Part shown: one piece after another, positions 8,595 through 28,401 of the stretch
Position numbering within the stretch: position 1 is the stretch's first letter
How the letters are laid out: each line of letters opens with the position of its first letter
Source: an uncultured Acidobacteriota bacterium
GTDB lineage: Bacteria; Acidobacteriota; Thermoanaerobaculia; Multivoradales; DATKCC01
Assembly: GCA_963843755.1 (NCBI GenBank)
Contig: CAWJLS010000010.1
Coordinates: 289,067 to 353,066, forward strand
Length of the DNA: 64,000 bases
Direction: 5' to 3'
Notes under the pieces: model-generated
What the model was told of the DNA's origin: nothing
What the model saw: only the letters and a program-made list of their open reading frames with translations
Databases searched by the model: none
Position numbers and translations under genes: made by a program

Positions 8595-8609
8595 CCGAGC
8601 GAGGGAGCG

Positions 8610-11072
8610 ATGACCGTGAATCCGAAGTCGAACGAATCACCGCGGACCGCCGGAGCCGGCGACGACGCCCGCCGGGAGCTGCGCCGGTTCTTCCTGCTCG
8701 GGCCCGCCGAGCCTGCCGAAGCCGGCGAGCCCCGCGTGAGCGAAACGCCCGCCGTCGTCCCCGTCCCGCTGGCCGCCTTCGTCGGCGCCGGCCGGGTGCG
8801 GACCGACTACCCCCTCTACCTCGGGTCCACGGCACCGACCGGGTCGCTCGAGGCGGCGACCGGCGCCCACGGCGCCCTCTGCTTGGGGTTCGACGAGCTG
8901 ATCTCCCGCGCCCGGCGCACCCTTGACGGCGAGGGGGCCCCGGTCGGGCAGATGCTCCGCGACAACCTGAAGCGCCTGGAAGGGCACCTGCTCGACCTGC
9001 TGGAGGCCGGCACGGCCACCGGCGACGCCCAGGAGGCGCTCCGCGCCGCCGGCGCCGCCATGGCCGAGGCGCTCGCGGCCGAGTCCGGCCTCGCCGAGGC
9101 CGACCGCGCCGCCCTGGTGGCGGACGTCGAGCGGCTCGCCGCCGCGCTGCCGCCGGCGGGCGACGGTCCGGGGTCGAGCCCGGCGCGCTTCCTGGCACCA
9201 CGGACCGGCGTCTCCCTCGACCTGCTCGGCCATGCCCTCCTCGCCGGCCGGCGGACCACCCGCGAAAGCTTCCTGCGCGAGGCTCGGGAGCTGGTCGACA
9301 AGGGGCGGGCGCTGATCGACGCCGACCGCCGCAAGCGTGCCGACGGCGATGCCGGGCGCGACGGCGAGCGCGAGCGCGGCGCCATGGGCGCGATGGGCAA
9401 GCGGTTCGTCGACCCGTCGGCGCTGGCGTCCGTCCTCGGCGAGCGGCGCGGCACCACGGCGCTCGCGCCTGCGCGGCGCGAGCGCCTCGAGGCGGCGATC
9501 GAAGCCCTGGCCGAGGTCGCGGACCGGCTGGCCGAGGTCGCGGACCGGCTGGCCGCGCCGCGGATGCGGCTGATCCACGACGGCAGCCTGCCCTGGGGCG
9601 AGCGCCTGCTCGGGGCCGCGGAGTCAGACAACTGGGTCGTGGTCGAGAGCTCCGACCCGTGCGCGGCCGCCGCGGAGGTCTTCGACCGGGAGGCCGAGGC
9701 CCTGGCCGCCGCGCTGCGCGGTCGCGAGCGGGTCCGGCTCGAGACCTCGGGCACCTACGTGGCGGCGGACCACGAACCGTGGCTCGAGCGGCTGGCCGGC
9801 TTCGACTGGCGGGCGTTCGACGCCGGCGAGGCGGCGCTGCTCGAGCCGACGGTGGCGCTCGAGTCCGCCGGCGAGCTGGCCGAGCGGGGAATGCTCAGCC
9901 TGTCGAAGCTGCTGCGCTCGAGTCGTCCGGTGCAGGTGCTGGTCGCCCTCGATCCGGCCATGAGCCCCGGGGTCGAGAATCCGGCGGCCGGCTACCGCTT
10001 CGAGCCCGGCTACCTCGGCATGAGCCACCGGGAGGCGTTCGTCCAGCAGTCGAGCGAGGCCCGGCCGCTCCACCTGATGGAGGGCCTGGTGCGTGCCGCG
10101 TCGTCCAGCCGGACGAGCCTGCACGTGGTGGCCCCCTGGCCCGGACAGGTCGAGGCCGGTCTGGACCCGGCTCTCGTCGCCGGCGCCGCCATCGATGGCC
10201 GCGCCCACCCCCTCTTCCGCTACGACCCCGAGACCGGCCCCTCCTGGGCTCACCGGCTCGACTTCTCGGGCAACCCGCAGCCGGCGGCCGACTGGCCGAC
10301 CGACGACGGGGCGGACGAGAGCCCGTTCACCTTCGCCGACTTCGCCCTGCTCGATCCGGCGCTCCGGCGCCATGTGACGCCGATCGGCCCCGGAGCGGCC
10401 GACGACGCCGACCTGGTGCCGATCGCCGCCTGGCTCGCCCTGCCGGTCGACGAGGCGATCCACAAGATCCCGACCGTCCTGGCCGTGCCGGTGACGGCGC
10501 TCGGCAACGGGAGCAAGGGCCCCAAGGGTGGCCAGACGGCCCCGGCCGAGCCCGTCCGCCTGGCCGTCTCCCGGCCGCTGGCCGCCGCCTGCCGCGACCG
10601 GCTCGGCTTCTGGCGCACCCTCCAGGAGCTCGCCGGGGTCAACAGCGAGTACGTCCGCCGGGCCGCCCAGGCGACCCGCGAGGAGGCCGAACAGGCCGCC
10701 CGCGCCGAGCGCGAGCGCCTGGAGGCGGCCCATGCGGCCGAGCTCGAGCGGGTCCGCGAGCGGTCCGCCCGCGAGGCGGTCGACCGGCTGACCGCGGCCC
10801 TTCTGGAGGTCGACCTCGGCCTGTTCAGCGAGCTGCCGCCGGAGATTCCGTCGTTGGCCGGCAAGACCGCCGACCAGGTCGCCGCGGCGCTGATGGATGC
10901 GGTCGGCTCTGATCTGGCGGAGATGGCCGAGACCGTCGAGACGATAGCCGCCGGCGACGGCGCGCCGTCGTCCGAGGCGGTCGATGCCGCTGCCCGGCAG
11001 TTGCTGGAGCTGGTCGATCCGGCCGCGATCGATCGTGAGTTGACGGACAGCCTGGAGCACACCACGGAGTAG
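8610..11072 (+). CDS. PFOR C-terminal (TPP-domain plus tail)-like paralog lacking cofactor motifs; function unknown
   Basis: 820-aa ORF with RBS GAGGGAG and strong GC3 bias. Residues about 400-700 align by eye to the neighbouring PFOR. Example: FDWRAFDAGEAALLEPTVALESAGELAERGMLSLSKLLRSSRPVQVLVALD versus PFOR FDWRDFSDDEFRLCPPVVVIGGDGAMLDIGFQNVSRLLASGKPLRVIVLD. Also AIDGRAHPLFRYDPETG..LDFSGNPQPAADWPT versus ALEGRAFPYLEYDPDAG..LSLEGNPAVEDTWPT. The GDG...N TPP motif and the Cys ligands are absent. Confidence 0.7.
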   Translation: MTVNPKSNESPRTAGAGDDARRELRRFFLLGPAEPAEAGEPRVSETPAVVPVPLAAFVGAGRVRTDYPLYLGSTAPTGSLEAATGAHGALCLGFDELISRARRTLDGEGAPVGQMLRDNLKRLEGHLLDLLEAGTATGDAQEALRAAGAAMAEALAAESGLAEADRAALVADVERLAAALPPAGDGPGSSPARFLAPRTGVSLDLLGHALLAGRRTTRESFLREARELVDKGRALIDADRRKRADGDAGRDGERERGAMGAMGKRFVDPSALASVLGERRGTTALAPARRERLEAAIEALAEVADRLAEVADRLAAPRMRLIHDGSLPWGERLLGAAESDNWVVVESSDPCAAAAEVFDREAEALAAALRGRERVRLETSGTYVAADHEPWLERLAGFDWRAFDAGEAALLEPTVALESAGELAERGMLSLSKLLRSSRPVQVLVALDPAMSPGVENPAAGYRFEPGYLGMSHREAFVQQSSEARPLHLMEGLVRAASSSRTSLHVVAPWPGQVEAGLDPALVAGAAIDGRAHPLFRYDPETGPSWAHRLDFSGNPQPAADWPTDDGADESPFTFADFALLDPALRRHVTPIGPGAADDADLVPIAAWLALPVDEAIHKIPTVLAVPVTALGNGSKGPKGGQTAPAEPVRLAVSRPLAAACRDRLGFWRTLQELAGVNSEYVRRAAQATREEAEQAARAERERLEAAHAAELERVRERSAREAVDRLTAALLEVDLGLFSELPPEIPSLAGKTADQVAAALMDAVGSDLAEMAETVETIAAGDGAPSSEAVDAAARQLLELVDPAAIDRELTDSLEHTTE
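9507..9548 (+). repeat. perfect 21-bp in-frame tandem duplication (2 copies plus a 6-nt partial third) inside the 820-aa gene
   Basis: ctggccgaggtcgcggaccgg occurs at 9507-9527 and again at 9528-9548, encoding LAEVADR LAEVADR. Confidence 0.9.
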
Positions 11073-11114: not shown

Positions 11115-11139
11115 GATGGCGATGCGAGGAGTCATCGAG

Positions 11140-14100
11140 ATGAAGGTCACCGAAGAACGCGAACAAGCCGAAGCCACCGTCCGGTACCCGGGAACCCCCG
11201 TTGCCATGGACGGCACCGCCGCGGTGGTCGCCATGGAGACCGCCGCCGGCGAGGCGGCCGGCGCCTACCCGATCACCCCGTCGACCCAGATGGGCGAGGG
11301 CTGGGCGAAGGCCGCCGCCCAGGGGACGCCGAACGTCAACGGGCGCCGGTTGATCTTCTTCGAGCCCGAGGGCGAGCATGCCGCGGCCGGCGTCACGGCG
11401 GGCATGTCGATGGTCGGCCTGCGCTCGACCAACTTCTCCTCCGGCCAGGGCATCGCCTACATGCACGAGTCGCTGTACGCGGCGGTCGGCAAGCGCCTGA
11501 CCTACGTGCTCAACATGGCCTGCCGGGCGATGACCAAGCATGCGCTCAACGTCCATGCCGGGCACGACGACTACCACGCGATCGACGACACCGGCTTCTT
11601 CCAGCTCTTCGCCAAGGACGCCCAGGAGGCCGCCGACCTCAACCTGATCGCCCACCGGATCGCCGAGCTGTCGCTCAACCCGGGCGTCTGCGCCCAGGAC
11701 GGCTTCCTGACCAGCCACGTCATCGAGTCGCTGCTGCTGCCCGAGCGCGCCCTGGTCAAGGAGTACCTGGGCGACCCGTCCGACCTGATCGAGTCGCCGA
11801 CGCCGGCCCAGCGCCTGGTCTTCGGCGAGACCCGGCGGCGCATCCCGGAGATGTTCGACCTGGACAACCCGGCGATGATCGGCGTGGTCCAGAACCAGGA
11901 CAGCTACGCCCAGGGCGTCGCCTCCCAGCGGCCGTTCTTCTTCGACCACATCGCCGCGCTCGCCGAGACGGCGATGGCCGAGTACGCTGAGCTCACCGGC
12001 CGGCGCTACCGCCGGGCCATGGGCTACCGGCTGCGCGACGCCGAGGTGGTGCTGGTCGGCCAGGGCTCGGTGGTCGGCAACGCCGAGGCGGTGGCCGATC
12101 ATCTGCGGGCGACTCGCGACCTCGCGATCGGCGTGCTCAACCTGACCATGTTCCGGCCGTTCCCGGCCGACCTGGTGGCCGGGATGCTGGCCGGCAAGCG
12201 CGCCGTGCTGGTGCTCGAGCGCCTCGACCAGCCGCTCGCTTCCGACCCGCCGCTGCTGCGCGAGATCCGCACGGCGCTGTCCAAGGCGGTCGAGAACCAC
12301 CGGGTCGAGGCGGGGCGGACGCCCCACGCCGGCATCCCGGCGGTGGCGCCGGACCAGGTACCGGACTTCTACTCCGGCTGCTTCGGCATGGGCAGCCGCG
12401 ACCTCCAGGCCGGCGACCTGGTGGCGGCGGTCGAGAACATGCTCCCGGGCGGAAGGGGACGGCGCCAGTTCTACCTGGGCGTCGAGTTCATCCGCAAGGG
12501 CAAGGTCCCGGCGAAGCTCGAGGAGTGGCAGCAGAAGGTGCTCGAGGCCTACCCCGACGTCGCCGACCTGGCGCTCGAGCCCGCGGGCGCCCTCGACCTG
12601 CTGCCCAAAGACTCCATGGCCGTGCGCATCCACTCCGTCGGCGGCTGGGGCGCCATCACCATGGGCAAGAACCTGACCATGACCTTGTTCGACCTGGTCG
12701 GGCTCAACGTCAAGTCGAACCCCAAGTACGGCTCGGAGAAGAAGGGGCAGCCGACCACCTTCTATAGCGTCTTCTCCCACGATCCGATCCGGATCAACTG
12801 CGAGCTCAAGCACGTCGACGTGGTGCTCTCGCCCGATCCCAACGTCTTCCGCCACTCGAACCCGCTCGCCGGGCTCGCCGAGGAGGGCACGTTCGTCATC
12901 CAGGCGAGCACGTCCTCGGAGAGCGGCGCCGAAGAGCTCTGGGCGAGCTTCCCGGCCTGGGCGCGCCGGACGATCCGCGACAAGAAGCTGCGCGTCTTCT
13001 ACCTCGATGCGTTCGCCATCGCCCGCGCCGAGACCGACGCCGCGGACCTGCAGTTCCGCATGCAGGGCAACGCTTTCCAGGGTGCCTTCTTCAAGGCCTC
13101 GCCGCTGATGCAGAGCGAGGGCCTGGACGAGGCCAAGCTGTTCGACGCGGTCCGCGCCCAGCTCCAGAAGAAGTTCGGCCACCGGGGCAAGACCATCGTC
13201 GACGACAACTTCCGGGTGCTCCGCCGCGGCTTCGACGAGCTGCGGGAGCTCGACTGGAAGGAGCTGGAGATGGGCTCCCAGGTCGATGAGGAGAAGGGCG
13301 AGATCAAGCCGCCCTGGTATCTCGACCGGGTGCCCCAGGATGCCGACGAGCTGACCGGCATCGCCGACCCCTTCCGGTTCATGCACCAGGTCTGCTCGGT
13401 CTACCGCGACGGCGCCGACCCGATCGCCGATCCGTACTCGGCGATCTCGGCGATCCCGGCGGCCACCGGCATCTTCCGGGACATGACCAACATTCGCTTC
13501 GAGGTGCCGGAGTTCATCGCCGAAAAGTGCACCGGCTGTGGCCAGTGCTGGACTCAGTGCCCGGACGCGGCGATCCCCGGACTGGTGATCGAGGTGGAGA
13601 AGGTTCTGCGGGCCGCGGTCTCCGACTGGGCGACCGACGGCGCCGCCAGCGACCGCATGCTCTCCGCCGTCGCGCCGCTGGCCCGTGAGGCCCGGGTGCT
13701 GCTCAAGCAGGAGGACTTCCCGTCGTTCGCCGCGGTGGTCACCCGTGCCTGGCCCAAGGTGGCCGGCGGCTTCGACCTGTCCGCCGAGGAGCGCGCGGCC
13801 CTGGACGAGGAGATCGACCAGGTCACCGCCCGCCTGGCGGAGTTCCCGCTCGCCAAGACGGTGCCGTTCTTCACCGTGCCGGAGCGCCAGAGCGAAGGCA
13901 GCGGCGGCCTGTTGGCCGTGACCATCAACCCGAACGCCTGCAAGGGCTGCAACCTGTGCGTCGAGGTCTGCCCGGACGACGCCCTCTACGCGGCCCACCA
14001 GGACCAGCCGCTGGTGGACAAGCTGCGCCGCAACTGGGCGCGCTGGGAGCAGCTCCCGGACACCCCGGACCGCTTCCTCCAGGTGAGCAACCTGGACGAA

Positions 14101-16204
14101 GGGATCGGCGTCCTCCACACCCTGCTGCTCAAGAAGAAGACCTATCACTCCATGGTCGGCGGCGACGGCTCGTGCATGGGCTGCGGCGAGAAGACCGGCA
14201 CCCACCTGATCGTCTCGACCATCGAGGCGGCGGTGGCGCCGCGGGTCGAGGCCTTCGTCGGCCAGCTCGAGGGGCTGATTGCCACGCTCGAGGACAAGGG
14301 CAACCACCTGCTGACCCTGTCGGCGGACCTGGGCGGCATGGCCGAGGCCGGGCTCGACATCAGCGAGCTCCACCTGAACGTGGAGGTGGCCGGCGAGAAC
14401 CGCAACCGCCTCGCCCGGATCTCGAAGACCTTGCGGATCCTCAAGGATCTCCACTGGCGCTACACCAGCGGTCCGTCGGGGCGCGGGCGCGCGGCGCTGG
14501 GCATTTCGAACTCCACCGGCTGCTCGTCGGTCTGGGGCTCGACCTACCCCTACAACCCGTACCCGTACCCGTGGGTCAACCAGCTCTTCCAGGACGCCCC
14601 GTCGGTCGCCATCGGCATCTTCGAAGGCTTCATGCGCAAGATGGCCGACGGCTTCGCCGCCGTGCGCACCGCCGAGCTGGAGGTGGCCGACGCCTACGAG
14701 CCGGAGGTCCACGACGGCGCCTTCCAGGCGTTCGACTGGCGCGACTTCTCGGACGACGAGTTCCGGCTCTGTCCGCCGGTGGTGGTGATCGGCGGCGACG
14801 GCGCGATGCTCGACATCGGCTTCCAGAACGTCTCGCGCCTGCTGGCCTCCGGCAAGCCGCTCCGGGTGATCGTGCTCGACACCCAGGTCTACTCGAACAC
14901 CGGCGGCCAGGCCTGCACCAGCGGCTTCCACGGCCAGGTCTCCGACATGGCCGAGTACGGCGCGGCGCGCCACGGCAAGGAGGAGAACCGCAAGGAGATG
15001 GGCCTGATCGCCATGGCCCACCGGGGCGCCTACGTGCTCCAGACCTCCCAGGCGCTGCCTGCCCACATGGTGGGTGGCGTGCTCAAGGGGTTGTCGAAGC
15101 GGCGACCGGCGATATTCAACATCTACACCCCGTGCCAGGCCGAGCACGGCCTGCCGGACTCGGCCTCGCTCCACGCCGCCAAGCTGGCCCTCGAAGGGCG
15201 GGCCTTCCCGTACCTCGAGTACGACCCGGACGCCGGCGTCACCACCTCCGAGCGGCTGTCGCTCGAAGGCAACCCGGCGGTCGAGGACACCTGGCCGACC
15301 TACGAGCTCGAGTACGTCGACGAGGACGGTGCCAAGCAGGTCATGACCCTGCCGCTGACCACCGCCGACTGGGCGGCGACCGAGCCCCGGTTCGCCAAGC
15401 ACTTCAAGAAGGTCGAGCGGGCGCTCTGGACCGACGCCATGGTGCCGTTCGCCGACTTCCTCGAGCTCTCCGCCGAGGAGCGTGCCGGCAAGACCCCGTT
15501 CATCTGGTTCAAGGACTCCGAGGAGCGCCTCGGCCGCCGGTCGGTCGCTCCCGAGATGGTCGAGCTGGCCGAGGAGCGGCTGCAGCTCTGGGACGAGCTC
15601 CGCGAGCTCGCCGGCGTCCGCCTGTCGGAGACGGTGCGGGCGCGGTTCTCGCGGCCCATGGAAGAGAGGATGGAGCGTGAGCTCACGGCGCTCCGGGAGG
15701 AGTACGAAGTGAAGATCGCCCAGCTCAAGGAACGCTATCCCGCGGCCATCACCCGGAGGATCGCCGAGGCCCTGGTCGGCGAGCGCGGCTCGGAGGCCCT
15801 GGCCGGCCTGTTCGGCGGTGGCCGCGCCGCGGTCGCCGTCGCGCCTGCGCCTCGACCGGTGGGCGGCCCCGGCGCCGGTCCGGCCCCGGTCCCGGTTCGC
15901 CGAACCCGTCGAGGCAGAGCCGGAAGCGGCTGCCGAAGAGGCCGAGGAGTCGATGGCCCTCGAGCCCTACATCGACACCGAGCTCTGCACCTCGTGCAAC
16001 GAGTGCACCCAGCTCAACCCGAAGATCTTCGCCTACAACGAGAACAAGCAGGCCTACATCAAGGACCCCAAGGGCGGTCCGTACGCCGACATCGTCAAGG
16101 CCGCCGAGCGCTGCACGGCCAAGGTCATCCACCCGGGAGATCCGCTCGACCCGAAGGAGCCCGAGCTCGAGAAGTGGGTCAAGCGGGCGCAGCCGTTCAA
16201 CTGA
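11140..16204 (+). CDS. pyruvate/2-oxoacid:ferredoxin oxidoreductase (NifJ/PFOR-type, enlarged) with a C-terminal ferredoxin domain reached only through an apparent +1 frame change near 15895-15905
   Basis: Full PFOR domain order: YPITPSTQMGE (domain I); VGGWGAITMGKN (domain III); CTGCGQCWTQCP and CKGCNLCVEVCP (two 4Fe-4S clusters); GGDGSCMGCGEKT, NSTGCSSVWG, GGDGAMLDIGFQN and TGGQACTSG (TPP plus proximal cluster). ATG 11140 has AGGAG 8 nt upstream (ATG 11116 is also possible). The body frame continues as R/G-rich junk to 16371, while the real-looking C-terminus (AEPVEAEPEAAAEEAEESMALEPYIDTELCTSCNECT...) is in the next frame and stops at 16204. Confidence 0.85.
15953..16204 (+). CDS. single-cluster 4Fe-4S ferredoxin-like segment (either the C-terminal domain of PFOR or a separate small ferredoxin)
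   Basis: MALEPYIDTELCTSCNECTQLNPKIFAYNENKQAYIKDPKGGPYADIVKAAERCTAKVIHPG (CxxCxxC...C). It is in a different frame from the PFOR body. ORF-track entry 15818..16204 begins with out-of-frame shadow of the PFOR linker. Confidence 0.55.
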   Translation: MALEPYIDTELCTSCNECTQLNPKIFAYNENKQAYIKDPKGGPYADIVKAAERCTAKVIHPGDPLDPKEPELEKWVKRAQPFN

Positions 16205-16375
16205 TCGCCATGCGCACTCCAGAGACACGAGATCGCGGGCGGGGGCGTCCCCTTCCCCCCGCGAGGGTGGGAAGGGGATCGAGGGGATGGGGGGCGATCC
16301 AGCCGATGCTCAAGGTTGATGGCTGCCCCTCGCTGGTCGTGGGAGCTTCATCAGGCGAAGCGGGGGTGTGATGCC

Positions 16376-17266
16376 ATGAACGAGATTCTGACCGGTGCCG
16401 CCATCATGGCCGGGTTGGGCCTGCTGTTCGGTACCATCCTCGCCCTGTCGTACCGCTTCCTCAAGGTCCAGGAGGACCCGCGGATCGACGAGGTCGAGGA
16501 GATGCTCCCCGGCTCCAACTGCGGAGCCTGCGGCGAGCCCGGCTGCCGGGCCCTGGCCGAGAAGGTGGTCGGCGGCGCGGTGGCGCCCGCCCAGTGCACG
16601 GTCTCGTCCAAGGACGCGATCGAGCGCATCGCCGAGTACCTGGGCGTCGAGGCGGGCGAAGGGGTCAAGCGGGTGGCCCGCCTCCACTGCGGCGGCGGGA
16701 TCGGCCGGGCGTTCCGGGTGGCCGCCTACGAGGGAACGTCGAGCTGCCGCGCCGCCCACCTGGTCGGCGGCGGCGGGCTCGAGTGCTCCTGGGGCTGCCT
16801 GGGGCTGTCCGACTGCGTCGACGCCTGCACCTTCGACGCCATGGAGATGAACGCCCTGCTGCTGCCCGAGGTCGACGTCGACAAGTGCACCGCCTGCGGC
16901 GACTGCGTCGACGCCTGCCCGCGCGACCTGTTCGACCTGATGCCGATCACCCACAAGCTGATCGTCCAGTGCAAGGCGCCGCTCGCGGCCGAGGATGCGC
17001 GGCGGATCTGCCAGGTGGCGTGCGACGCCTGCGGACGCTGCGCCGCCGACGCGGCGCCCGGCCTGATCCGCATGGAGAACAACCTGCCGGTGGTCGACTA
17101 CGCCGCCGGCGAAGGGCCGGCCGAGCCGTCGGCCACCTGGCGCTGCCCCACGGGGGCGATCCGCTGGGTGGACGGCGAGCAGTTCCGGGAGCTCGACGAG
17201 ACGGGGACCGACTCTGGACCCACCTCTGGGCCCACTTCCGGTCGGGGAGAGAGGATGTATGCCTGA
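16376..17266 (+). CDS. rnfB: Rnf electron transport complex subunit B
   Basis: MNEILTGAAIMAGLGLLFG (N-terminal TM), LPGSNCGACGEPGCRALAEKV, and Cys clusters CTACGDCVDACP and CDACGRCAADA. Confidence 0.9.
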   Translation: MNEILTGAAIMAGLGLLFGTILALSYRFLKVQEDPRIDEVEEMLPGSNCGACGEPGCRALAEKVVGGAVAPAQCTVSSKDAIERIAEYLGVEAGEGVKRVARLHCGGGIGRAFRVAAYEGTSSCRAAHLVGGGGLECSWGCLGLSDCVDACTFDAMEMNALLLPEVDVDKCTACGDCVDACPRDLFDLMPITHKLIVQCKAPLAAEDARRICQVACDACGRCAADAAPGLIRMENNLPVVDYAAGEGPAEPSATWRCPTGAIRWVDGEQFRELDETGTDSGPTSGPTSGRGERMYA

Positions 17267-20200
17267 GAACGGCGCGCTGGACGATGTGAAAGGGGTCGCG
17301 CGCGGCCTCTACGAGAAGCTGATCGGTGTCAAGCCCGAGCCGGCGGACCCCGGCGTCGCCGCGATCGACACCGGCTCCGGGGCCGTGGCCCGCACCGAGG
17401 CGGCGATCGCCCGCCTGGCCGGTGGCGCGGCCGGTCTCACCGATCCGTCCGGATCGTCGCCCAGGGCTCGACCGGCTCGGACGACGCTGCGGCCGTCTAC
17501 GAGCAGCACCGCGCCGCGACCGGCGGGGCGGCTGTCGTCCTCGAGCGGCCGGGGCTCCCTGGCCGCGGCCGTCGGCCTGGCGTCCGCGGGGATGCGGGCG
17601 ACCGCGTTCCTCTCCGGCCCCGAGCTGGTCGCGGCGGCTGACGCTGCTGGCCTCCGCCGTCGAACCGGCGTCTGCCCCTGGTCGTCCACCTGGACGACCG
17701 GGCAACCGGCGCGTGGGCGGCTCCCGGGGCGCGCTCGAGGCCGCACGGCTCCGGCGCCGTCGTGCTGCTGGCCCGCGACGTCCAGGAGGCGGTCGACCTG
17801 ACCGTCGCCGGCCGGCGCGTGGCCGAGGACGCTCTCCTGCCGGTGGTGGTGACGATCGACGGGGCGGAGACCGCCGCCTCGGTCCAGGACCTGCTGCTGC
17901 CGACGGATGCTCTGCTGCGCTCGTACCTGGGGCGGCCGCGGACATGATCCACCCGCTGACCCGTGCCCAGGAGATGCTCTTCGGCCGCCACCGCCGGCGC
18001 CTGCCCAAGTGGCACGACCCGGCCCGGCCGCTGACCACCGGCACCCTCCACGGCCCGGAGTCGGCGCCGCTCGCGGCCGCGGGCCGCAGCGCCTACCTGG
18101 ACGCCGAGGTGCCGGCCCTGCTCGAGACGGCGCTGGCCGAGCTGGCCCGCCGCACCGGCCGGTCGCTCGAACCGGTCACCGGCCACCGCACCGGCGGGGC
18201 CAAGATCGTCCTGGTCGCCGCGGGCGCGGCGGTCGGCACCGCCGAGGCGGCGGCGGACGGTCTGCGCAAGGAAGGGCTCAAGGTCGGCGTGGTCGGCCTG
18301 CGCAGCCTGGCGCCCCTGCCCGCCTCGCGACTGACGATGCTGCTCGCGGCGCCTGGCGCCGTGGCGGTGCTCGAACGCTCTGCCGGAGCCCTCGGCGGGG
18401 CGAGCGGTTCGGGGGGGCCGGCGGCGACACGGCGCCCCTGATCACCCGGCTGCGCGCCCTCCTGGCCGGCAGCACCGCCGGGGGCGGACCGCGGCTCGTC
18501 TCCGCCCTCTACGGCCTGGGCGGGGCGCCGCTGTGCGGGGCCGACCTGGTGCAGCTCGGCCGGTCGCTGGCCAAGGAGTCGATGCAGGCCTCGTCGTCCA
18601 GGGGGGGGGCGAGGGAGCGCAAGGGGACGGACCAGGCCCTGCCCTCGCCGCTCTTCCTCGGCGTCTCGTTCGCCGGTGACGCCTCGTTTCCCAAGCAGGA
18701 GGTGCTGCTCGACGCCCTGCGCCAGAGCTACCCGGACGCGGCCCGGCTCGGGCTGCGCGGAGCCGGCCCGGTCGACCTGCGGCCGGAGGGCACCGCCGTG
18801 GTCGCCGTCCATCGCCTGGCCGGCGAGGGCGCGGGGATCGCCGCCGACGCGGCCCGGCTGCTTCACGCGACGGCCCTCGCCAAGCACGGCGGGCGGGTGG
18901 CGGCCTACCCGGGGCTCACCTGGGAGCGCTGGGCGGCGCCGGCGGCCGACCGGCTCCAGATCGCCTCCGGCGGTCACCGGGACCGGGGCGGCGCACTGGC
19001 CGACCCGGGCGCCGACGCGCCGGTCGACCTGAGCCTCTGGGCGAGCCCGTCCACTGCGCCGGCCCGCGCCCTGGTCGAGCACCTGGCGGACGGTGCCGCG
19101 CTGATCGTTCCCCGGCGGCTCGGTTCCGCGGCCGGTGCCGCCTCCGACCTGACCGACTGGTGGACCGACCTGCCCGAGGCGGTGCGCACGGCCGTCGCGA
19201 CGAAGGGTGTCCACCTCTACGTGATCGAGATCGAGGCGGAGGCCGCCCTGACCGCGCCGGGCTCTCCGGCTGCGGGCACGGACTCCCTGCTCCTGGGCGC
19301 CCTCCTGGGGGCGCTCCGGGCCGAGGGGCGGTTCGAGGTCAAGGACCGCAAGCTCCTGGAAGCCTTCCGCGCTCTACAGTCCGTCCGCCCGTCGGACGAG
19401 GGGGCCGGCGAGGAAGCAGAACGGCGGTTCCAGACCGGTCTCGAGCGGGTCCGCCGGCTGACCCCGGCCGATCTCTCGGTGCGCCGCCGTCCGGCGCCCG
19501 AGCCCGACCCGGTGCCGGCCGCGGTCCGCCGCCTGGTGACCGCCGGCGCGGCGACCGGAGGGGGACGGGGCCCCCTGCGCGGGGCGCCCGAGACGGTCGA
19601 CAGCCTGCCCCGGTTCTGGGACCAGGTCGGCGTGCTCTACCGCCGGGGCGACGAGGCGCGGCTGACGCCGGACCCCTATCTGGCGACCGGTGCCGTGCCG
19701 GCGCTGGCCGGGTCGCTGCGCCAGGTCGACCGCGGCCGGAGCGTGCTGCCGGCCTTCGAGCCGGCCCTGTGCACCGGCTGTGGGGAGTGCTGGAGCGCCT
19801 GCCCGGACGGGGCGATCGCCCCGGTGGTCCTCGGCGCCGGCCAGCTCCTCGACCAGGCCATGGCGCGGGCGCGCCGGGCCGGCAAGTCGGTCGACGCCCT
19901 GCGCATGGCGGCCTCCAAGATCGCCGCCGGCGTCAACCAGGAGCTGGCCTCCCGGGTCGACACCGAGGCGGGCGGCGATGCCGCGGAGCTGTTCGCCACC
20001 GCGTTCGAGAAGACTCTGGCCAAGATGCCCCTGCCGGACGAGCGCAAGGCCGCGCTGACCGAGGCGTTCGCCGCCGTGCGGGACGAGCTCGAAGGGCTGC
20101 CCGTCTCCCGGACGGCGCCGTTCTTCGGTGCGCCCGAAGGGGAGGTGAAGGGGACCGGCGAGCTGCTCCTGCTGGCGATCGATCCGGACGCCTGCAAGGG

Positions 20201-21884
20201 CTGCGGCGTCTGCGTGGCGGCGTGCGAGCCGGAGGCGCTCCGGACGGCTGCCGACTCGGCCGACCGCACCCGTGCCGCCCGCGCCCTCTGGCGGCGGCTC
20301 GAGGAGCTGCCCGAGGCGAGCCCCGAGACCGTCGGGCGCGCTCGCCTCAGCGAGGACGTGGGTCCGCTCGCCGGAGCCCTGCTGGCCAAGGCCTCCCGCG
20401 AGGTGGTCGCCGCGGCCGACGGCGCCGAGCCCGGATCGGGCGCGACGCTCGCCGTGCGCCAGGCCCTGGCGGCGGCCGCCTACCACCTGACGGTCGCCCC
20501 CGAGGCGGCCCGCCCGGCCCGCCTGGCCGCGATCGATGCCCTGCGCGAGGAGCTCGCCGGGGCGATCCACGACGGCCTCGCCCGGGCGTTGCCCGACCGC
20601 GACCTCGACGCCCTGGCCCTGGGCCTGGGCACGCTCCAGCGCCCCGAGGCCGATCTCGCGGAGCTGACCTCCCGGGTCGAAGGCGCCCTCGAAGGCGACC
20701 GGGTCGACGTGGCCCGCCTGCGCCGGCTGGTCGATGCCGCCCGCCGTCTGGCCGACCTGCGGTTCCGCCTGGGTGGCTCCGAGGCGGAGGAGGGCCGTCC
20801 CGGGTCCGGCTCCGGGCCCGCACCGCTCAGTCTCGTCCTGGCCGGCCGCGTGGCGGCCTGGGGCGGGGCGTTCCCGTACACCCCGTTCGCGGTGCCGGTG
20901 AGCGTCGACGCCACCGGCGACGCCGTCGGCGTCGCCCGCGGTCTGCTCGAGGGCGGCCTGGCCGAGACGGTCGAGCTGGCGCGGGCCGAGCGCCGGGCGC
21001 GCATCGAGCTCGCCGCCAGGACCCCGTCCGAGGCGGCGAAGGCCGCCGACGAGGTCCGCCGCCTGGCCGATCTCTCCTGGCGCGACCTGGACGCGGCGGA
21101 GCGTGCGCTCTGCCCGCCGGTCGTGGTGGTGGCGAGCGAGGACGAGCTCCTGGCCGACGATCCGGGCGGTCTGGCCGACCTGCTGGCTGGCGACCTGCCG
21201 GTCAAGGTCGTGCTGCTCACTCCGCACTCGGACGTCTCGACCGATCGCTCCGGTCGCGGGCCCCACTGGCCCCACTGGTTGACTTGGGCCGGCCACCCGA
21301 ACGCCGTGGTGGCCCAGAGCTCGGTCGGCGCGGGCGATCACCTGGAGGCCGCGACCGCCGCCGCCCTGGCGTTCGACGGCCCGGCGCTGCTGCGGGTGCA
21401 CGCGCCGGAGCCCTCGCGGGGCGGCTTCGCGGCCGACAAAACCCTCGGGCAGGCCCGGGAGGCGGTGGCGACGCGGGCCTTCCCGCTGTTCGTCAGCCGG
21501 CCCGGCTCGGCTTTACGAGATGGGCGAGATGGGCGGGACGGGGCGGACGGGCTGCCGACCCTCGACCTCTCCGGCAACCCGGAGGCCGACCCCCCGGACG
21601 ATTCCGCGGCCGTGCGCGCCTGGCGGCTGCTCCGTCACCGGGCCGGTGCCGACGAGGCGTTCGCCGCCGCGGCGGCCGCCGCCGACGAGAGCGCGCGGGC
21701 CGAGCAGGAGCGACGGGATCACGAGCAGGAGATCGCCGCGCTCCGCGCTGACTACGAGCAGCGCCTCGCCGACGCCCGAGCCACGACCCAGGTGGAGATG
21801 GCGCGGCGGGTGCGCAACAAGCTCCTCGCCGTGGCGGCCCACCGGGCGGAGTCCGGTGCGCAGTCGGCGGAGGAGCGGCGATGA
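17259..21884 (+). pseudogene. full-length PFOR paralog with lost catalytic motifs; its first 1.2 kb is broken by at least 5 frame changes
   Basis: Collinear with the PFOR at 11140-16204 across all domains. Homologous segments sit in different frames: 17259-~17450 (frame of 17259), ~17450-17553 (-1 shift), ~17555-17640, ~17667-17932, 17932-18417, then 18420-21884 as one uninterrupted frame. Three junctions (17553, 17930, 18415) fall clearly in G-runs (GGGG, GGGG, GGGGGGG). The ferredoxin motifs are retained (CTGCGECWSACP, CKGCGVCVAACE). TPP and proximal-cluster motifs are lost (AADGAEPGSGATL for GGDGSCMGCGEKT; VVVVASEDELLADD for VVVIGGDGAMLDIG). The start overlaps the rnfB stop by 8 nt and the stop overlaps the rnfC ATG (ATGA). 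Confidence 0.75.
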
Positions 21885-23320
21885 ACGTCATCCAGCCCAG
21901 CTTCCGCCACGGCATCCATCCGCGCGAGCACAAGGAGGCGACCGAGCACCTGCCGATCGCCCGGATGCCGTTCGTCCCGCTCTACGTCCTGCCGCTCTCG
22001 CAGCACACCGGCGCTCCCTGCAAGCCGGTGGTGCAGGCCGGCGACCGGGTCGAGCGGGGGCAGGTCGTCGCCGAGGCGGGCGGGTTCGTCTCCATGACGC
22101 TCCACGCCCCGGTCACCGGGGTCGTCAGCGCCGTCGGCCAGCGCACCCATCCGTCGGGGCGGCTCGCACCCGCGATCGAGATCGAGGCGGACCCGTTCTC
22201 GACCCAGGAGATCGTCCCCCAGCGGCCGGCCGGCGCGCCGGCGCCGGAGGAGCTCTCCACCGACCAGTTCGTCGCCGAGATCCAGCGCGCCGGCCTGGTC
22301 GGCATGGGCGGGGCGGCCTTCCCGACCCACGTCAAGTACAAGCCGCCCGAGGGCAAGGTGGTGCGCCGCCTGGTGCTCAACGGCTGCGAGTGCGAGCCGT
22401 TCCTGACCAGCGACCACCGGGTGATGGTCGAGCGCCCCGAGGCGATCATCCGCGGCGCCGAGATCGTCGCCCGCCACCTGGGGGTCGAGGAGGTGGTGAT
22501 CGGCGTCGAGCTCAACAAGCCGGACGCGATCCGGGTGCTCCATGAGGCCGTCGACGCCCGTCCTCCCCTGGTGCTCCAGGCCCCGTCCGCCGGCAGGTCC
22601 GGCGCCGACTCGCCCAAGACCGTGCCGATCCGGGTCGTGCCGCTCAAGGTCAAGTACCCCCAGGGCGCCGAGAAGATGCTCATCCGGGCGATCTACGGCG
22701 AGGAGGTGCCGTCCGGCGGCCTGCCCCTCGACGTGGGCGCGGTGGTCAACAACGTCGGCACCATGGCGGCCGTGGCCGACTGGTTCGACCGCGGGATTCC
22801 GCTGATCGAGCGCATCGTCACCGTCGCCGGCCCGGGCATCGAGCGGCCGGCCAACCTGCTGGTCCCCGTCGGCACGCCGGTGCGCGCCGTGCTCGACCAC
22901 TGCGGTCTCGACCACGACACCCGCGAGGTGGTCATGGGCGGGCCGATGATGGGGCAGCCGCTGGCCAGCCTCGACGTGCCGGTGCTCAAGGGCACCTCCG
23001 GGCTGCTCGCCTTCACCGAGACCGAGACCCTGGTGCCGCGGGAGTACACCTGCATCAAGTGCGGCCGCTGTGTCGAGGCGTGCCCGCAGTTCCTCAACCC
23101 GTCGCGCCTGGCGAAGCTCGCCCGGGCCGGCCGGTGGGAGGACATCGAGGCCTACTCGGTGATGGACTGCGTCGAGTGCGGATCGTGTAGCTACTCTTGC
23201 CCCTCCGGCATCCCCATCGTCCAGCTCATCCGGGTCGCCAAGTCGAGCCTGCGCGAGCAGAAGGCGAAGGAGAAGGCGGAGCGGGCGCGGGTGGCCGAGG
23301 CGGCGGAGAAGGCCTCGTAG
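21881..23320 (+). CDS. rnfC: Rnf electron transport complex subunit C
   Basis: GLVGMGGAAFPTHVKY, LNGCECEPFLTSDHR, and two 4Fe-4S motifs CIKCGRCVEACP and CVECGSCSYSCP. Confidence 0.92.
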   Translation: MNVIQPSFRHGIHPREHKEATEHLPIARMPFVPLYVLPLSQHTGAPCKPVVQAGDRVERGQVVAEAGGFVSMTLHAPVTGVVSAVGQRTHPSGRLAPAIEIEADPFSTQEIVPQRPAGAPAPEELSTDQFVAEIQRAGLVGMGGAAFPTHVKYKPPEGKVVRRLVLNGCECEPFLTSDHRVMVERPEAIIRGAEIVARHLGVEEVVIGVELNKPDAIRVLHEAVDARPPLVLQAPSAGRSGADSPKTVPIRVVPLKVKYPQGAEKMLIRAIYGEEVPSGGLPLDVGAVVNNVGTMAAVADWFDRGIPLIERIVTVAGPGIERPANLLVPVGTPVRAVLDHCGLDHDTREVVMGGPMMGQPLASLDVPVLKGTSGLLAFTETETLVPREYTCIKCGRCVEACPQFLNPSRLAKLARAGRWEDIEAYSVMDCVECGSCSYSCPSGIPIVQLIRVAKSSLREQKAKEKAERARVAEAAEKAS

Positions 23321-23442: not shown

Positions 23443-24504
23443 ATGAGCGCCCGTGAGCCCCGCCTGCTGGTGCAGACCTCGCCCTTCCTGCGCGAGGGGG
23501 TGACCACTCCCGGGCTGATGGGCGACGTGCTGATCGCCGTCCTGCCGGTGTTCGCCGTGTCGCTCTGGGTGTTCGGCCTGTCGTCGCTGCTGGTGGTGAC
23601 GGCGGCGACCGCCGGCGCGGTCGGCACGGAGTGGCTGTTCACCAAGCCGCCGCGGTCCGTCACCGGACAGCGAGGCCGGCGCGGCGAGAGCCTGAAGAAC
23701 GGCAGCGCCCTGCTCACCGGCGTGCTCCTGGGACTGACCCTGCCGCCCGCCTTCCCGCTCTGGATGGCGGTGATCGGCGGCGCGGTCGGTATCGCCCTGG
23801 GCAAGCTGATCTGGGGCGGCCTGGGCAACAACCTGTTCAACCCGGCGCTGGTCGGCCGCGCCTTCCTCCAGGCCGCGTTCCCGATCGCCATCACCACCTG
23901 GGCGCCCCCCGGCGGCCGGCTGACGGTGCACGCCTCGAACCTGACCCCGCCGTTCATGCACCCCGCCGCGGACGCGGTCACCGCCGCGACACCGCTCAAC
24001 CTGATGAAGTTCGAGCACCACGCGACCGCCCTCGGCCAGCTCTTCGGCGGCCAGGTCGCCGGCTCCCTGGGGGAGACCAGCGCGGCGGCGATCCTGCTCG
24101 GCCTCGCCTGGCTGATCGCGCGCCGGGCCTGCGACTGGCGCATCCCGGTGAGCATCCTGGGGACGGTGGCGGTCTTCACCAGCGTGCTCTGGGCGATCTC
24201 GCCGGACCGCTACGCGTCGCCGCTGTTCATGCTCATGTCGGGCGGGCTGCTGTTCGGCACCACCTACATGGCGACCGACCCGGTGACCTCGCCGCTGGCG
24301 CCGCGCGGCGCCTGGATCTTCGGCGCCGGCATCGGCGTGCTGGTGGTGCTGATCCGCACCTGGGGCGGCCTGCCCGAAGGTGTGATGTACGCCATCCTGC
24401 TGATGAACTCGGCGACGCCGCTGATCGAACGCGCCACCCAGCCGCGGGCGTTCGGTCACGGCCGGCCGGCGAAGGGCGCGGGCCAGGGAGGGGGCAAGTC
24501 ATGA
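23443..24504 (+). CDS. rnfD: Rnf electron transport complex subunit D
   Basis: Polytopic membrane protein with ...NLFNPALVGRAFL...TGATPL-like...FGTTYMATDPVTSP (FMN attachment region). ATG 23443 has GGAGG 8 nt upstream. Confidence 0.92.
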   Translation: MSAREPRLLVQTSPFLREGVTTPGLMGDVLIAVLPVFAVSLWVFGLSSLLVVTAATAGAVGTEWLFTKPPRSVTGQRGRRGESLKNGSALLTGVLLGLTLPPAFPLWMAVIGGAVGIALGKLIWGGLGNNLFNPALVGRAFLQAAFPIAITTWAPPGGRLTVHASNLTPPFMHPAADAVTAATPLNLMKFEHHATALGQLFGGQVAGSLGETSAAAILLGLAWLIARRACDWRIPVSILGTVAVFTSVLWAISPDRYASPLFMLMSGGLLFGTTYMATDPVTSPLAPRGAWIFGAGIGVLVVLIRTWGGLPEGVMYAILLMNSATPLIERATQPRAFGHGRPAKGAGQGGGKS

Positions 24505-25289
24505 GCGAGATCGGCCAGGAGACCGGCCACGAGACCGCCAGCGCGACCGGCCATGACTCCGCCAAGGCGGCCGGAGAGCGGCGCGGGTTCCAGATGCCGG
24601 AGACGCCGCGCCTCGTGCTCACTCTCTGCCTGGCGGGGCTGCTGTCGGGGCTGACCATCGTCGGCGCCTACCGGCTGACCCTGCCGGTCATCCAGGAGAA
24701 CCACGCCCGGGCGTTGCGCGAGGCGGTGTTCGAGGTGGTGCCCGGCTCGGAGCGGATGCAGCGGCTGGTGATCGAGGGCGAGGGCGCCGCCGCGCACCTG
24801 GTGCCCGCCGCCGGCGTGCTCGGCGAGGAGCCGTCCGTCTACGGCGCCTATGCCGCCGACGGCCACTTCGTCGGCTACGCCATCCCGGCCGAAGGGCCCG
24901 GCTTCCAGGACACGATCCGGCTGATCTACGGCTTCGACCCGGGCAAGCAGAGGATCGTCGGCATGTCGGTGCTCGAGAGCCGGGAGACCCCGGGCCTGGG
25001 CGACCGGATCTACAAGGACCAGAGCTTCGTCGACCAGTTCGACGACCTGGCGGTGGCGCCGCCGGTGCAGCTCGTCAAGGAGACGCCGACCTCGCCGAAC
25101 CAGGTGGATGCGATCACCGGTGCCACGATCTCGTCGACGGCGGTGGTCAACATCGTCCGGCGGAGCAACGAGACGTGGCTGGACAAGCTGCCGCCGGCGG
25201 ACCAGGCTCCGGCGCTGACGGAGACGCCCCCGGCGGGCGACGGCGCGACGACGGACAAGGGCGGTCCGATCCCGGGAGGCAAGTCGTGA
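24501..25289 (+). CDS. rnfG: Rnf electron transport complex subunit G (FMN-binding)
   Basis: N-terminal TM, ...ETPGLGDRI...VDAITGATISSTAV. ATGA overlap with the rnfD stop. Confidence 0.9.
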   Translation: MSEIGQETGHETASATGHDSAKAAGERRGFQMPETPRLVLTLCLAGLLSGLTIVGAYRLTLPVIQENHARALREAVFEVVPGSERMQRLVIEGEGAAAHLVPAAGVLGEEPSVYGAYAADGHFVGYAIPAEGPGFQDTIRLIYGFDPGKQRIVGMSVLESRETPGLGDRIYKDQSFVDQFDDLAVAPPVQLVKETPTSPNQVDAITGATISSTAVVNIVRRSNETWLDKLPPADQAPALTETPPAGDGATTDKGGPIPGGKS

Positions 25290-25336: not shown

Positions 25337-26011
25337 ATGGCGGCACCCGGCAAAGAGCCCGGCGAAGTCTACGCGGAGTTCGTCAAGGGGCTGTGGAAAG
25401 AGAACCCGGTCTTCGTCCAGGTGCTCGGCATGTGCCCGTCCCTGGCGGTGACCAACTCGGCCATCAACGGGATGGCCATGGGCGGGGCGACGCTGTTCGT
25501 GCTGGTCATGTCGTCGCTTCTCGTCTCGTTGCTGCGCAACTGGATTCCGAAGGCGGTCCGGATCTCCACCTACATCATCGTCATCGCCACCTTCGTCACC
25601 GTGGCGGACTTCACCCTCCAGGCGGTGGCGCCGGCGGTCCACCGGGAGCTCGGCGCGTTCATCTCCCTGATCGTGGTCAACTGCGTGATCCTCGGCCGGC
25701 AGGAGGCGTTCGCGGCCAAGAACCGGGTGGGCCTGGCGGTGGTCGACGCGCTCGGCATGGGCGGCGGTTTCGCCTTCGCCCTGATCCTCCTGGGCGCGGC
25801 CCGCGAGATCCTCGGCAAGGGGTCGCTGTTCGGCGTCTCGCTGTTCGGCGCGTCGTACGAGCCCTGGGTCGTGATGATCCTGCCGCCGGGCGGCTTCCTC
25901 ATGCTGGGCGTGATCCTGCTGGTCTTCGCCTCGGTCGCCGAAGGGCGCAAGAAGCTGGCCGCCAAGGCGAGCGGCGACTCCACCGCGAGCGAGAAGGAGG
26001 AGGCAGCCTGA
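25337..26011 (+). CDS. rnfE: Rnf electron transport complex subunit E
   Basis: GLWKENPVFVQVLGMCPSLAVT...SLIVVNCVILGRQEAFA, typical of the RnfE/NqrD family. Confidence 0.92.
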   Translation: MAAPGKEPGEVYAEFVKGLWKENPVFVQVLGMCPSLAVTNSAINGMAMGGATLFVLVMSSLLVSLLRNWIPKAVRISTYIIVIATFVTVADFTLQAVAPAVHRELGAFISLIVVNCVILGRQEAFAAKNRVGLAVVDALGMGGGFAFALILLGAAREILGKGSLFGVSLFGASYEPWVVMILPPGGFLMLGVILLVFASVAEGRKKLAAKASGDSTASEKEEAA

Positions 26012-26601
26012 TGGCGAACCTGAGCACGCTGGCCTGGATCTTCATCTCGGCGCTCCTGGTCAACAACTTCACGCTCTCCTACTTTCTCGGCCTGTGCCCG
26101 TTCTTCGGCGTGTCGGGCAAGCTGGTGACGGCGTTCCGGCTGGGGCTGGCGAACATCTTCGTCATGCTGATCACGTCGTTCTCGGCCTGGGTGCTGGACA
26201 CCTTCGTCCTGGTCCACGCGCCGTACCTCCAACTGATCAGCTTCATCGTCGTGATCGCCTCGACGGTGCAGTTCGTCGAGATGGTGATCCGCAAGCTCTC
26301 TCCGGCGCTCTTCCGGGCGCTCGGCATTTTCCTGCCGCTGATCACGACCAACTGCGCGATCCTGGCGCTGGCGCTGTTCCAGACCAGCCGGGGCTACGGG
26401 CTGATCCAGGGCCTGGTGTTCTCCCTCGGCGCCGGCATGGGGCTGACGCTGGCTCTCGTGCTGATGGCGGGTCTGCGGGAGGAGGCGGAGCTCTCGGACA
26501 TCCCGAGCCTGATCCGGGGGACGGCGATGAACCTGCTCATCGCCGGGATCTTGTCGCTGGCGTTCATGGGGTTCGCCGGCCTGTTCAGCCCGACCTCGTG
26601 A
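26011..26601 (+). CDS. rnfA: Rnf electron transport complex subunit A
   Basis: LVNNFTLSYFLGLCPFFGVS...GIFLPLITTNCAILALAL, RnfA/NqrE family. TGATG overlap with rnfE. Confidence 0.92.
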   Translation: MANLSTLAWIFISALLVNNFTLSYFLGLCPFFGVSGKLVTAFRLGLANIFVMLITSFSAWVLDTFVLVHAPYLQLISFIVVIASTVQFVEMVIRKLSPALFRALGIFLPLITTNCAILALALFQTSRGYGLIQGLVFSLGAGMGLTLALVLMAGLREEAELSDIPSLIRGTAMNLLIAGILSLAFMGFAGLFSPTS

Positions 26602-26772
26602 TGCACGACCTCGCCGCCATCGCCCTGCTCGCGGCCGCCTGCGGCGGCTGGGTGGCGCTCCAGCGCTGGATCGGGCGCGTCGATCCGGAGATCCCGGGGA
26701 TTCAGCGGAGCTGCTCGGGGTGCTCTGTGCCGGGGGCGGGGGGGAGGCTTGTGGTGGAGGGTGCAGCGTGCC

Positions 26773-26795
26773 GGGGGGCGGGGCGGGCGGGAGGG
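26773..26795 (+). other. canonical G-quadruplex motif (five G-tracts with 1-nt loops) downstream of rnfA
   Basis: GGGGGG C GGGG C GGG C GGG A GGG at 26773-26795. A further G5-C-G7 run lies at 26732-26744. Confidence 0.5.
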
Positions 26796-27374
26796 TGGTG
26801 CAGCTTGGAGAGTCCCGTCCGGAGCCGGGCCGCCTCCGCTGAGAAGTCGCGCAGGGGGCACCGGGGTTCCTTCGGCGGGAGGTTCGCCGGGAGCGGTCCA
26901 GGAGGCGACGGCTCCGGGACGCCGCGCGAACTGGACGGGGTTGGGAGCTCAACGCGCGTCTCGACATGGTCCGCGTCGGGCCTCGATGAGCGCTCAGATG
27001 CCGTCGCGGACGCGGCCCATGACGCCCTCCACCGGCGCCTCCCGGACCGCTCCGGGTTGGAGCGCTCGTCGAGGTGGTGCAGCGCTGCTGGGGACAGAAT
27101 CGGGGCTCACTCTGCGGCGAGTCGCGTCTGGACCACCCGTTACGTAGCGTTTGTGGAGAAGGCGACGTTCTGTCCGGGTCCGAGACCGTCCCTTGGTCTG
27201 CCTGGGCTCAACCCGAGCGCACTCTGTGCGGAATTCGTCACCGAGCTCCGGTCCGCTTCGGAGGGACCCTCGGAGCTGCTGGCCCAAGTGTGCGCTCGTT
27301 CCAGGGGTCGACGAGCGGCGCGGCCCTGAGACGGAGTCAGGCTCTCGAGGCAAAGGTAGACTTCGGATCGATCC

Positions 27375-27635: not shown

Positions 27636-27766
27636 GCTAAATGATCGGCTCAATCGTCCTGGCACGCTGCGTGTGCCGAAAATGTACGGTCCGTGGTTGG
27701 GGCAGGTTGTTCTGGCCGCCGGCTCTGGCCGGGTCGGGTAGCCAGCCCGTGCCGGCCGATCAGCCT

Positions 27767-28350: not shown

Positions 28351-28401
28351 GAGTGTGACTCCGTTCACGCGACGATCATACCAAAGTATGCAGACACCGC
28401 T

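Follow-up and report, generated by a model that had tools for sequence, protein, structure and literature searches.

We examined a gene, here called PFOR2, that lies between rnfB and rnfC in a 64,000-nt stretch of contig CAWJLS010000010.1 from an uncultured Acidobacteriota bacterium (the window, in which position 1 is the first letter of the stretch). PFOR2 encodes a degenerate paralogue of pyruvate:ferredoxin oxidoreductase (PFOR), and its reading frame is broken in the deposited sequence. The window has a GC content of ~72%, so that the GC signal at third codon positions (GC3) follows the reading frame closely. The gene and its damaged part are located as follows.

17259-21884, + strand: PFOR2, a degenerate PFOR paralogue within the rnf operon, in three frames as deposited and of ~1,538 amino acids (aa) when frame-corrected.
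17469-18436, + strand: the frameshift zone, with about eight insertions or deletions (indels), from protein-to-DNA alignment and DNA alignment to an orthologue.

A GC3 frame plot showed that the coding signal changes among the three forward frames from 17259 to ~18420 and then keeps a single frame to 21884, and segmentation by a Viterbi procedure based on codon usage recovered the same hopping over this interval. Both bear out a preliminary description of this DNA, which had proposed a coding signal hopping between frames and a resemblance to PFOR. The resemblance is also above chance: Pfam domain POR_N was matched with E = 5e-9 in the frame of 17660-17944, PFOR_II with E = 7.6e-12 in the open reading frame (ORF) 17326-18441, and the 3' ORF contains two Fer4 (4Fe-4S) motifs. 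In a frameshift-aware protein-to-DNA alignment the closest orthologues matched the window with 76-77% identity over ~460 codons distributed across three frames. Hopping between frames is a real property of the deposited sequence, and the homology to PFOR is statistically solid.

Six of the frame changes are clean indels of 1-2 nt in conserved DNA, at 17507 (+1), 17643 (+1), ~17661 (+1), 17713 (-1), 17746 (-2) and ~17931 (-1), while two further changes fall within length-variable linkers at ~17469 and ~18412-18436. Homologous sequence is carried successively by 17259-17468 (frame 0), 17471-17506 (frame 2), 17508-17642 (frame 0), 17644-17664 (frame 1), 17666-17713 (frame 2), 17716-17745 (frame 1), 17747-17932 (frame 2), 17935-18411 (frame 1) and 18423-21884 (frame 0). 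The extra bases add up to 12, so that PFOR2 ends in the frame in which it begins, and no internal stop codon was found in the damaged zone after frame correction. The preliminary description was right about the presence of several frame changes but counted five or six rather than ~8, having left out the short in-frame pieces LLASAVE (17644-17664, 7 codons) and GGSRGALEAA (17716-17745, 10 codons). Its junction in the GGGG at 17553 was misplaced, as the frame is already restored at ~17507 and 'HRAATGGAAVVLERPG' shows no homology. Three junctions had been assigned to G homopolymers; G runs contain no more than two of the eight sites (17929-17932 and 18411-18417).

Comparison with relatives showed that PFOR2 is the orthologue of a conserved protein of ~1,500 residues that is encoded between rnfB and rnfC by a single ORF. 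A search with the intact 3' part retrieved the deposited product of the locus, P0001 (1,100 aa), and 79 relatives, nearly all of which are 1,400-1,650 aa long and carry POR_N, PFOR_II and Fer4 domains. The orthologues P0002, P0003 and P0004 are single ORFs of 1,512-1,529 aa with 73-77% identity; frame-corrected PFOR2 is 76-80% identical to these three proteins and 49-54% identical to distant members. The N- and C-terminal parts lie in one frame in all 81 informative relatives, which represent four or more phyla, and are split in none, a result that answers the question, raised in the preliminary description, of whether orthologues are single ORFs. Set against the uninterrupted ORF of ~1,400-1,650 codons expected of the family, the deposited window sequence is broken by its ~8 frame changes.

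These comparisons also bear on the possibility that the pieces are still made, either as translationally coupled sub-ORFs or by programmed ribosomal frameshifting. Coupling had been suggested in the preliminary description from an ATGA at 17944-17947, in which ATG 17944 would serve as a new start, and the coincidence of the first and last frames could be read in the same way. However, ATG 17944 is a conserved internal Met/Leu codon within '(D/E)(M/L)(I/V)HP', and a zero net shift is expected by chance one time in three. Stop/start pairs are lacking at the frame changes, two of the in-frame pieces comprise no more than 7 and 10 codons, the slippery heptamer X XXY YYZ is absent from 17259-18440 and, as noted, none of the 81 relatives is split. 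We consider this explanation highly improbable, and these sequence features bring functional sub-ORFs or recoding essentially close to exclusion.

Disruption of the frame is one expectation for a pseudogene; a second is relaxed selection. The preliminary description had proposed that the ratio of non-synonymous to synonymous substitution rates (dN/dS) be compared between the two parts of the gene, and this comparison gave no pseudogene signal. Relative to an orthologous locus (L001), dN/dS was 0.28 in the frame-corrected zone, where dS was 0.45 and hence unsaturated, and was not above the 0.31 obtained for the intact 3' part. Identity to the outgroups P0005 and P0006 was 0.67 and 0.67 for the corrected zone, compared with 0.66-0.70 for intact orthologues. 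Private changes at otherwise invariant sites amounted to 4/150 in the zone, 5-8/151-154 in the orthologues and 31/551 in the 3' part of the window gene. Neither dN/dS nor private replacements nor in-frame stops indicated relaxed selection.

Frameshifts were also detected elsewhere in the operon, whose remaining genes are listed here.

5680-7653, + strand: korA-like gene, in the upstream part of the conserved cluster (5680-11072).
7641-8594, + strand: korB-like gene, in the upstream part of the conserved cluster.
8610-11072, + strand: gene for an 810-aa protein without a family match, with a stretch resembling the degenerate domain VI of PFOR2.
11116-16204, + strand: PFOR1, a motif-complete PFOR to which a ferredoxin-like domain is fused at the C-terminus (Pfam and orthologue alignment).
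16376-17266, + strand: rnfB, intact, 92% identical to the L001 orthologue, its 3' end overlapping the start of PFOR2.
21881-23320, + strand: rnfC, intact.
23443-24504, + strand: rnfD, intact.
24525-25289, + strand: rnfG, intact.
25337-26011, + strand: rnfE, intact.
26011-26601, + strand: rnfA, intact.
26601-26842, + strand: small gene after rnfA, 81 codons, transmembrane and Cys-rich, lacking 1 nt of a G run at ~26725-26739.

The neighbouring PFOR1 is damaged, as the preliminary description implied; it has a single +1 frameshift at ~15898, which lies in a Pro/Ala linker adjoining a 17-nt tandem repeat. Its deposited ORF of 1,751 codons (11116-16371) contains every PFOR domain according to Pfam but runs on to a point just 5' of rnfB, whereas the real C-terminus is at 16204. 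The C-terminal part (15845-16204) encodes a ferredoxin-like domain of ~100 residues that is 99% identical to that of the orthologue, and the 87 codons 3' of the frameshift contain 9 synonymous and 2 non-synonymous differences (dN/dS 0.05). The statement that every gene other than this PFOR is intact did not hold, because the 81-codon gene after rnfA is also frameshifted: at ~26733 it has G5-C-G7 where the orthologue has G5-C-G8, and this loss from G8 to G7 is the only classic homopolymer change. In total there are ten indels from 15.9 to 26.7 kb, of which eight fall inside 970 nt. Relative to orthologues, no frameshift was found in rnfB, rnfC, rnfD, rnfG, rnfE, rnfA, korB or the gene for the 810-aa protein, or in the first 1,290 codons of PFOR1 and the last 380 codons of PFOR2. 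For the other clearly segmented genes the coding signal reaches the stop codons in the Viterbi segmentation, except for a few tails in which it stops 70-135 nt early. A tandem-repeat scan detected only small 17-nt near-repeats, which adjoin the site at 15898 and span that at 18412.

As dN/dS, private changes, outgroup identity, the PFOR1 tail and the unsplit relatives are all without signs of relaxation, these sequence comparisons indicate that the corrected frames have been under selection until essentially the present day. Were the event real, eight indels would have become fixed without detectable substitutions and three genes of one operon would have been affected; we therefore prefer an error in the consensus. 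Our estimate is a probability of about 70% that the PFOR2 frame changes are indel errors left uncorrected in a contig consensus assembled from a metagenome, and the gene is probably intact in the organism. The preliminary description had left pseudogenization and sequencing error side by side; the tests favour error, and any real event would have to be very recent.

Several observations weigh against an error of this kind. The indels are oddly clustered, with eight in 970 nt but none in the next 3.4 kb and none in the 891 nt of rnfB. GC content was considered as a cause of this clustering and rejected, because the clean 3' part (71-82% GC) is as GC-rich as the zone (74-81%). Simple homopolymer miscalling was also rejected, because few of the sites are in runs of G and because the stretch around a G9 run at 18601-18609, in a variable linker of PFOR2, reads in frame. 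Long-read metagenome-assembled genomes of relatives carry the gene intact. In the collections searched, no second genome exceeded ~75% protein identity, and a scan of one genome per species gave no match of >51% identity among the matches listed; the evidence for error consists of the deposited consensus and the comparison with orthologues.

Some of these features could be accommodated by a special case of consensus error, in which assembly would have combined reads of divergent strains living side by side, and polishing would have kept indels at the points of disagreement. PFOR2 evolves faster than any other gene of the cluster, with a dS of 0.45 versus 0.15-0.28 for PFOR1, rnfB and rnfC and a protein identity of 74-77% versus 92-95%, so that divergence between strains should peak at this gene, and a cluster of mixed insertions and deletions outside homopolymers would fit. 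The 3' part of PFOR2 is, however, equally divergent and yet clean, and a collapse of strains is not distinguishable from other sources of error on the consensus alone. We regard it as a somewhat unlikely origin of the damage, with a probability that forms part of the one assigned to consensus error.

Alternatively, the N-terminal third of PFOR2 could have been genuinely inactivated in this strain, and very recently. In that case the ferredoxin domain and the degenerate domain VI, encoded by the 3' 1,100-1,150 codons, might still be expressed from an internal start such as the publicly annotated ATG 18582, and the deposited annotation as the 1,100-aa product P0001 is in keeping with this. An inactivation would be consistent with the restriction of all eight indels to the first quarter of the gene ahead of 3.4 kb of clean sequence, with the position of most indels outside homopolymers when a G9 run of the same gene reads in frame, and with the perfect state of rnfB between two damaged genes. 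Yet the zone shows no extra substitutions and no rise in dN/dS, so the elapsed time must be tiny, and eight fixed indels imply an indel-to-substitution ratio far above that of bacterial pseudogenes (by our estimate rather than by measurement). Moreover, three genes of an otherwise strongly conserved operon would have been hit together while the PFOR1 tail, which would be untranslated, still has a dN/dS of 0.05, and the N-terminal domains are as conserved across the family as the rest of the protein, with 0/81 relatives lacking or splitting them. A recent inactivation is thus unlikely, and uncorrected consensus error is retained as the preferred explanation.

The loss of catalytic motifs in PFOR2 is a separate matter from the local damage. 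The preliminary description had observed that the ferredoxin-domain cysteines are kept while the catalytic motifs are gone, and had concluded that the gene is a degenerate paralogue; both points are correct, but the degeneration is ancient and is a trait of the whole family, present across several phyla, rather than a sign of decay at this locus. The relevant positions are the following.

19770-19805, + strand: ferredoxin-domain motif 1, CTGCGECWSACP, conserved family-wide.
20193-20225, + strand: ferredoxin-domain motif 2, CKGCGVCVAAC, conserved family-wide and ~130 residues from motif 1.
20412-20444, + strand: relic of the proximal-cluster CxxC, AADGAEPGSGA versus GGDGSCMGCGE in PFOR1 (Cys to Glu and Cys to Ser).
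21108-21233, + strand: relic of the thiamine pyrophosphate (TPP)/Mg motif, VVVVASEDELL...DLPVKVVLLTPHSD versus VVVIGGDGAML...RVIVLDTQVYSNTGGQ in PFOR1 (motif alignment).
21396-21416, + strand: VHAPEPS, at the site of the last proximal-cluster Cys of catalytic enzymes, YTPC or HAPCP (motif alignment).
21606-21854, + strand: C-terminal single helix of ~80 residues without a counterpart in solved PFORs (model residues 1062-1144).

The TPP-activating Glu of domain I, found within EGEHAAAG in PFOR1, is replaced in PFOR2 (SGRGSLAAA) by an Arg that is present family-wide. Similarly, the GDG-X(~27)-N motif for TPP/Mg2+, which reads 'GGDGAML...VLDTQVYSNTGGQ' in PFOR1, has become 'ASEDELL...VLLTPHSD' with deletion of the loop, and the Pfam domain TPP_enzyme_C had no match in PFOR2. 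Cys ligands of the proximal [4Fe-4S] cluster are substituted both where SCMGCGE is changed to AEPGSGA (AExGSGE in the family) and where YTPC is changed to HAPE (HAP(E/S)P in the family). All four of these Cys are lost family-wide; the third was not mapped individually, but the family has no further invariant Cys. By contrast, the two CxxCxxCxxxC motifs are preserved, and C450, C453, C456 and C460 of the first and C591, C594, C597 and C601 of the second are invariant or nearly so. The window gene has the family pattern of GRG, AExGSGE and HAPxP together with colinear similarity over the full length.

A profile of the family matched PFOR structure 6CIN in the PDB with E = 1.9e-61 over five colinear stretches. 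Evidence for the fold came from an AlphaFold model, which covers only the 3' 1,153 residues, has a mean pLDDT of 76 and gave 6CIN as its top Foldseek match (E = 7e-21). PFOR2 scored 52.6 bits against the NCBI model for PFOR, for which the cut-off is 911; no NCBIfam model covers the family, and its members are generically annotated as '4Fe-4S binding protein'. Together the alignments and the model indicate that PFOR2 is an old, conserved pseudo-enzyme that is colinear with full-length PFOR and is predicted to have the same fold.

With the homodimeric PFORs of Moorella thermoacetica (6CIN) and Desulfovibrio africanus (1B0P), PFOR2 shares the domain order I-II-III-V-VI and both CxxCxxCxxxC motifs of the ferredoxin domain. 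It differs from them in the change of the domain I Glu to Arg, of CxxC to ExxS and of the last cluster Cys to Glu or Ser, in the replacement and partial deletion of the GDG...N TPP/Mg motif, in an insertion of ~90-130 residues between the ferredoxin motifs, in the long C-terminal helix and in the embedding of its gene in an rnf operon. PFOR1 has in common with PFOR2 a large insertion separating the ferredoxin motifs and the context 'ER.LCPP', which suggests that PFOR2 arose by duplication of a PFOR1-type gene. Unlike PFOR2, PFOR1 keeps the Glu, the CxxC, GDG...YSNTGGQ and the last Cys, has the extra C-terminal ferredoxin-like domain and evolves far more slowly (93-94% versus 74-77% identity to L001).

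The position of PFOR2 between rnfB and rnfC, 3' of korA, korB, the gene for the 810-aa protein and PFOR1, is that of the family. Its overlaps of 8 nt with rnfB and of ATGA with rnfC, both reported in the preliminary description, are identical at L001. A 12-gene order that includes korA, korB, the gene corresponding to that for the 810-aa protein (unk812), PFOR1, rnfB, PFOR2 and rnfCDGEA occurs in most loci with long enough flanks and is kept across Gammaproteobacteria, Acidobacteriota, Eisenbacteria and Phycisphaerales (window 5680-26842 and loci L001-L083). Contigs carrying P0004, for example, encode korA, korB, an 812-aa protein of no assigned family, a 1,684-aa PFOR, rnfB, the 1,512-aa paralogue, rnfC, rnfD, rnfG, rnfE, rnfA and an 81-codon gene. 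Searches of families and PDB sequences gave no match for the 810-aa protein of the window, but a 209-residue stretch aligned with the degenerate TPP-fold domain of PFOR2 (31% identity, E = 3e-9), and from this alignment the protein may be a second non-catalytic module derived from an oxoacid oxidoreductase. The small gene after rnfA matched no Pfam or NCBIfam family and follows rnfA at L001 and L002 also.

Synonymous divergence from L001 varies about three-fold among adjacent genes of this cluster (dS of 0.15 for PFOR1, 0.25 for rnfB, 0.28 for rnfC and 0.45 for PFOR2), and strength of codon bias, recombination or a different history are candidate causes. Beyond the small gene, ~0.9 kb (26850-27770) is devoid of coding signal on both strands, of Rfam matches and of tandem repeats; Rfam and tRNA scans of the whole window were without matches. 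Judged from translations only, a MazF/PemK-like toxin with an upstream partner (27767-28353, - strand) resembles a toxin-antitoxin pair, as does a DUF433-like protein followed by a PIN-like ORF with an apparently shortened N-terminus (38397-38914, - strand). Two ketosynthase-like genes, resembling a KS-alpha/KS-beta pair, are followed by a flavin-dependent halogenase-like gene at 32440-36889 (+ strand).

At least 457 relatives of PFOR2 were found in the scan of one genome per species. Gammaproteobacterial sulfur oxidizers and symbionts are prominent among the carriers (Thiodiazotropha, tubeworm symbionts, relatives of Beggiatoa, Sedimenticola, Woeseiaceae and cultured Thiorhodococcus), and others belong to Thermoanaerobaculia and other Acidobacteriota, Candidatus Eisenbacteria and Phycisphaerales. 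For the symbiont of Solemya velum, PFOR genes located between rnfB2 and rnfC2 had been noted in its 2014 genome paper and interpreted as a route by which electrons enter from pyruvate. Our literature searches found this gene order noted in 2014 but did not find a description of the loss of cofactor motifs. The S. velum gene, compared here from its published description, shares with PFOR2 the type of operon and the position between rnfB and rnfC, and many of the relatives come from Gammaproteobacterial sulfur-oxidizer symbionts. Whereas it was treated in 2014 as an active enzyme feeding Rnf from pyruvate, PFOR2 of the window retains only the ferredoxin-cluster motifs, and the motif-complete enzyme is encoded upstream of rnfB.

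PFORs are dimers in which the ferredoxin domain is the wire by which electrons leave. A paralogue that is catalytically dead but keeps only this wire, and that is encoded in the same operon between RnfB and RnfC, would most simply be a non-catalytic partner, and we propose that PFOR2 may serve as an electron-transfer or scaffold partner of the motif-complete PFOR1 encoded just upstream. It could couple PFOR1, and perhaps KorAB, to RnfB and RnfC, the ferredoxin-side subunits of Rnf. Rnf would make low-potential electrons from NADH and an ion gradient, and these electrons could pass directly to 2-oxoacid synthases, or the flow could be the reverse. The domain-VI-like stretch of the 810-aa protein (the alignment with E = 3e-9) hints at a second such partner.

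A more specific and rather doubtful model is that PFOR1 and PFOR2, the latter as the structural half, form an asymmetric heterodimer, with one live and one dead active site, which docks on RnfB/RnfC through the ferredoxin domain and the C-terminal helix. With KorAB and unk812 it would constitute a ferredoxin-free supercomplex of 2-oxoacid synthases and Rnf, for reductive carboxylation driven by NADH and an ion gradient. We infer the heterodimer and its docking on Rnf from gene order, shared insertions and motif loss only, which counts against the model, and the association of PFOR2 with Rnf was deduced from gene order only. A partial parallel is the accessory cytoplasmic Rnf subunit that has been reported for the structure of Azotobacter vinelandii RNF1 (reviewed in PMC12174285). 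Like PFOR2, this subunit is an additional soluble protein encoded with the Rnf core and presumed to bind it; it is presumably much smaller than PFOR2 and unrelated to it. If the supercomplex model is true, the arrangement would be conserved from sulfur-oxidizing Gammaproteobacteria to Acidobacteriota, Eisenbacteria and Phycisphaerales, and the frameshifts of the window would be irrelevant noise on an unrecognized module of respiration or carbon fixation.

Here we have described a damaged gene that most likely represents an assembly error on an ordinary member of a widespread and unstudied family. The recorded product of 1,100 aa is probably an artefact, as is the end of PFOR1 produced by read-through, and neither should be used as evidence for gene decay or for a split enzyme. 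The gene between rnfB and rnfC, which was read as an active PFOR in symbionts, is without TPP and proximal-cluster motifs across several hundred genomes. This changes the model of the cluster, in that the catalytic enzyme would be the product of the gene upstream of rnfB, with the embedded gene as a candidate electron wire or scaffold. Finally, the presence of the family in cultured Thiorhodococcus strains makes the idea of an electron wire or scaffold testable.

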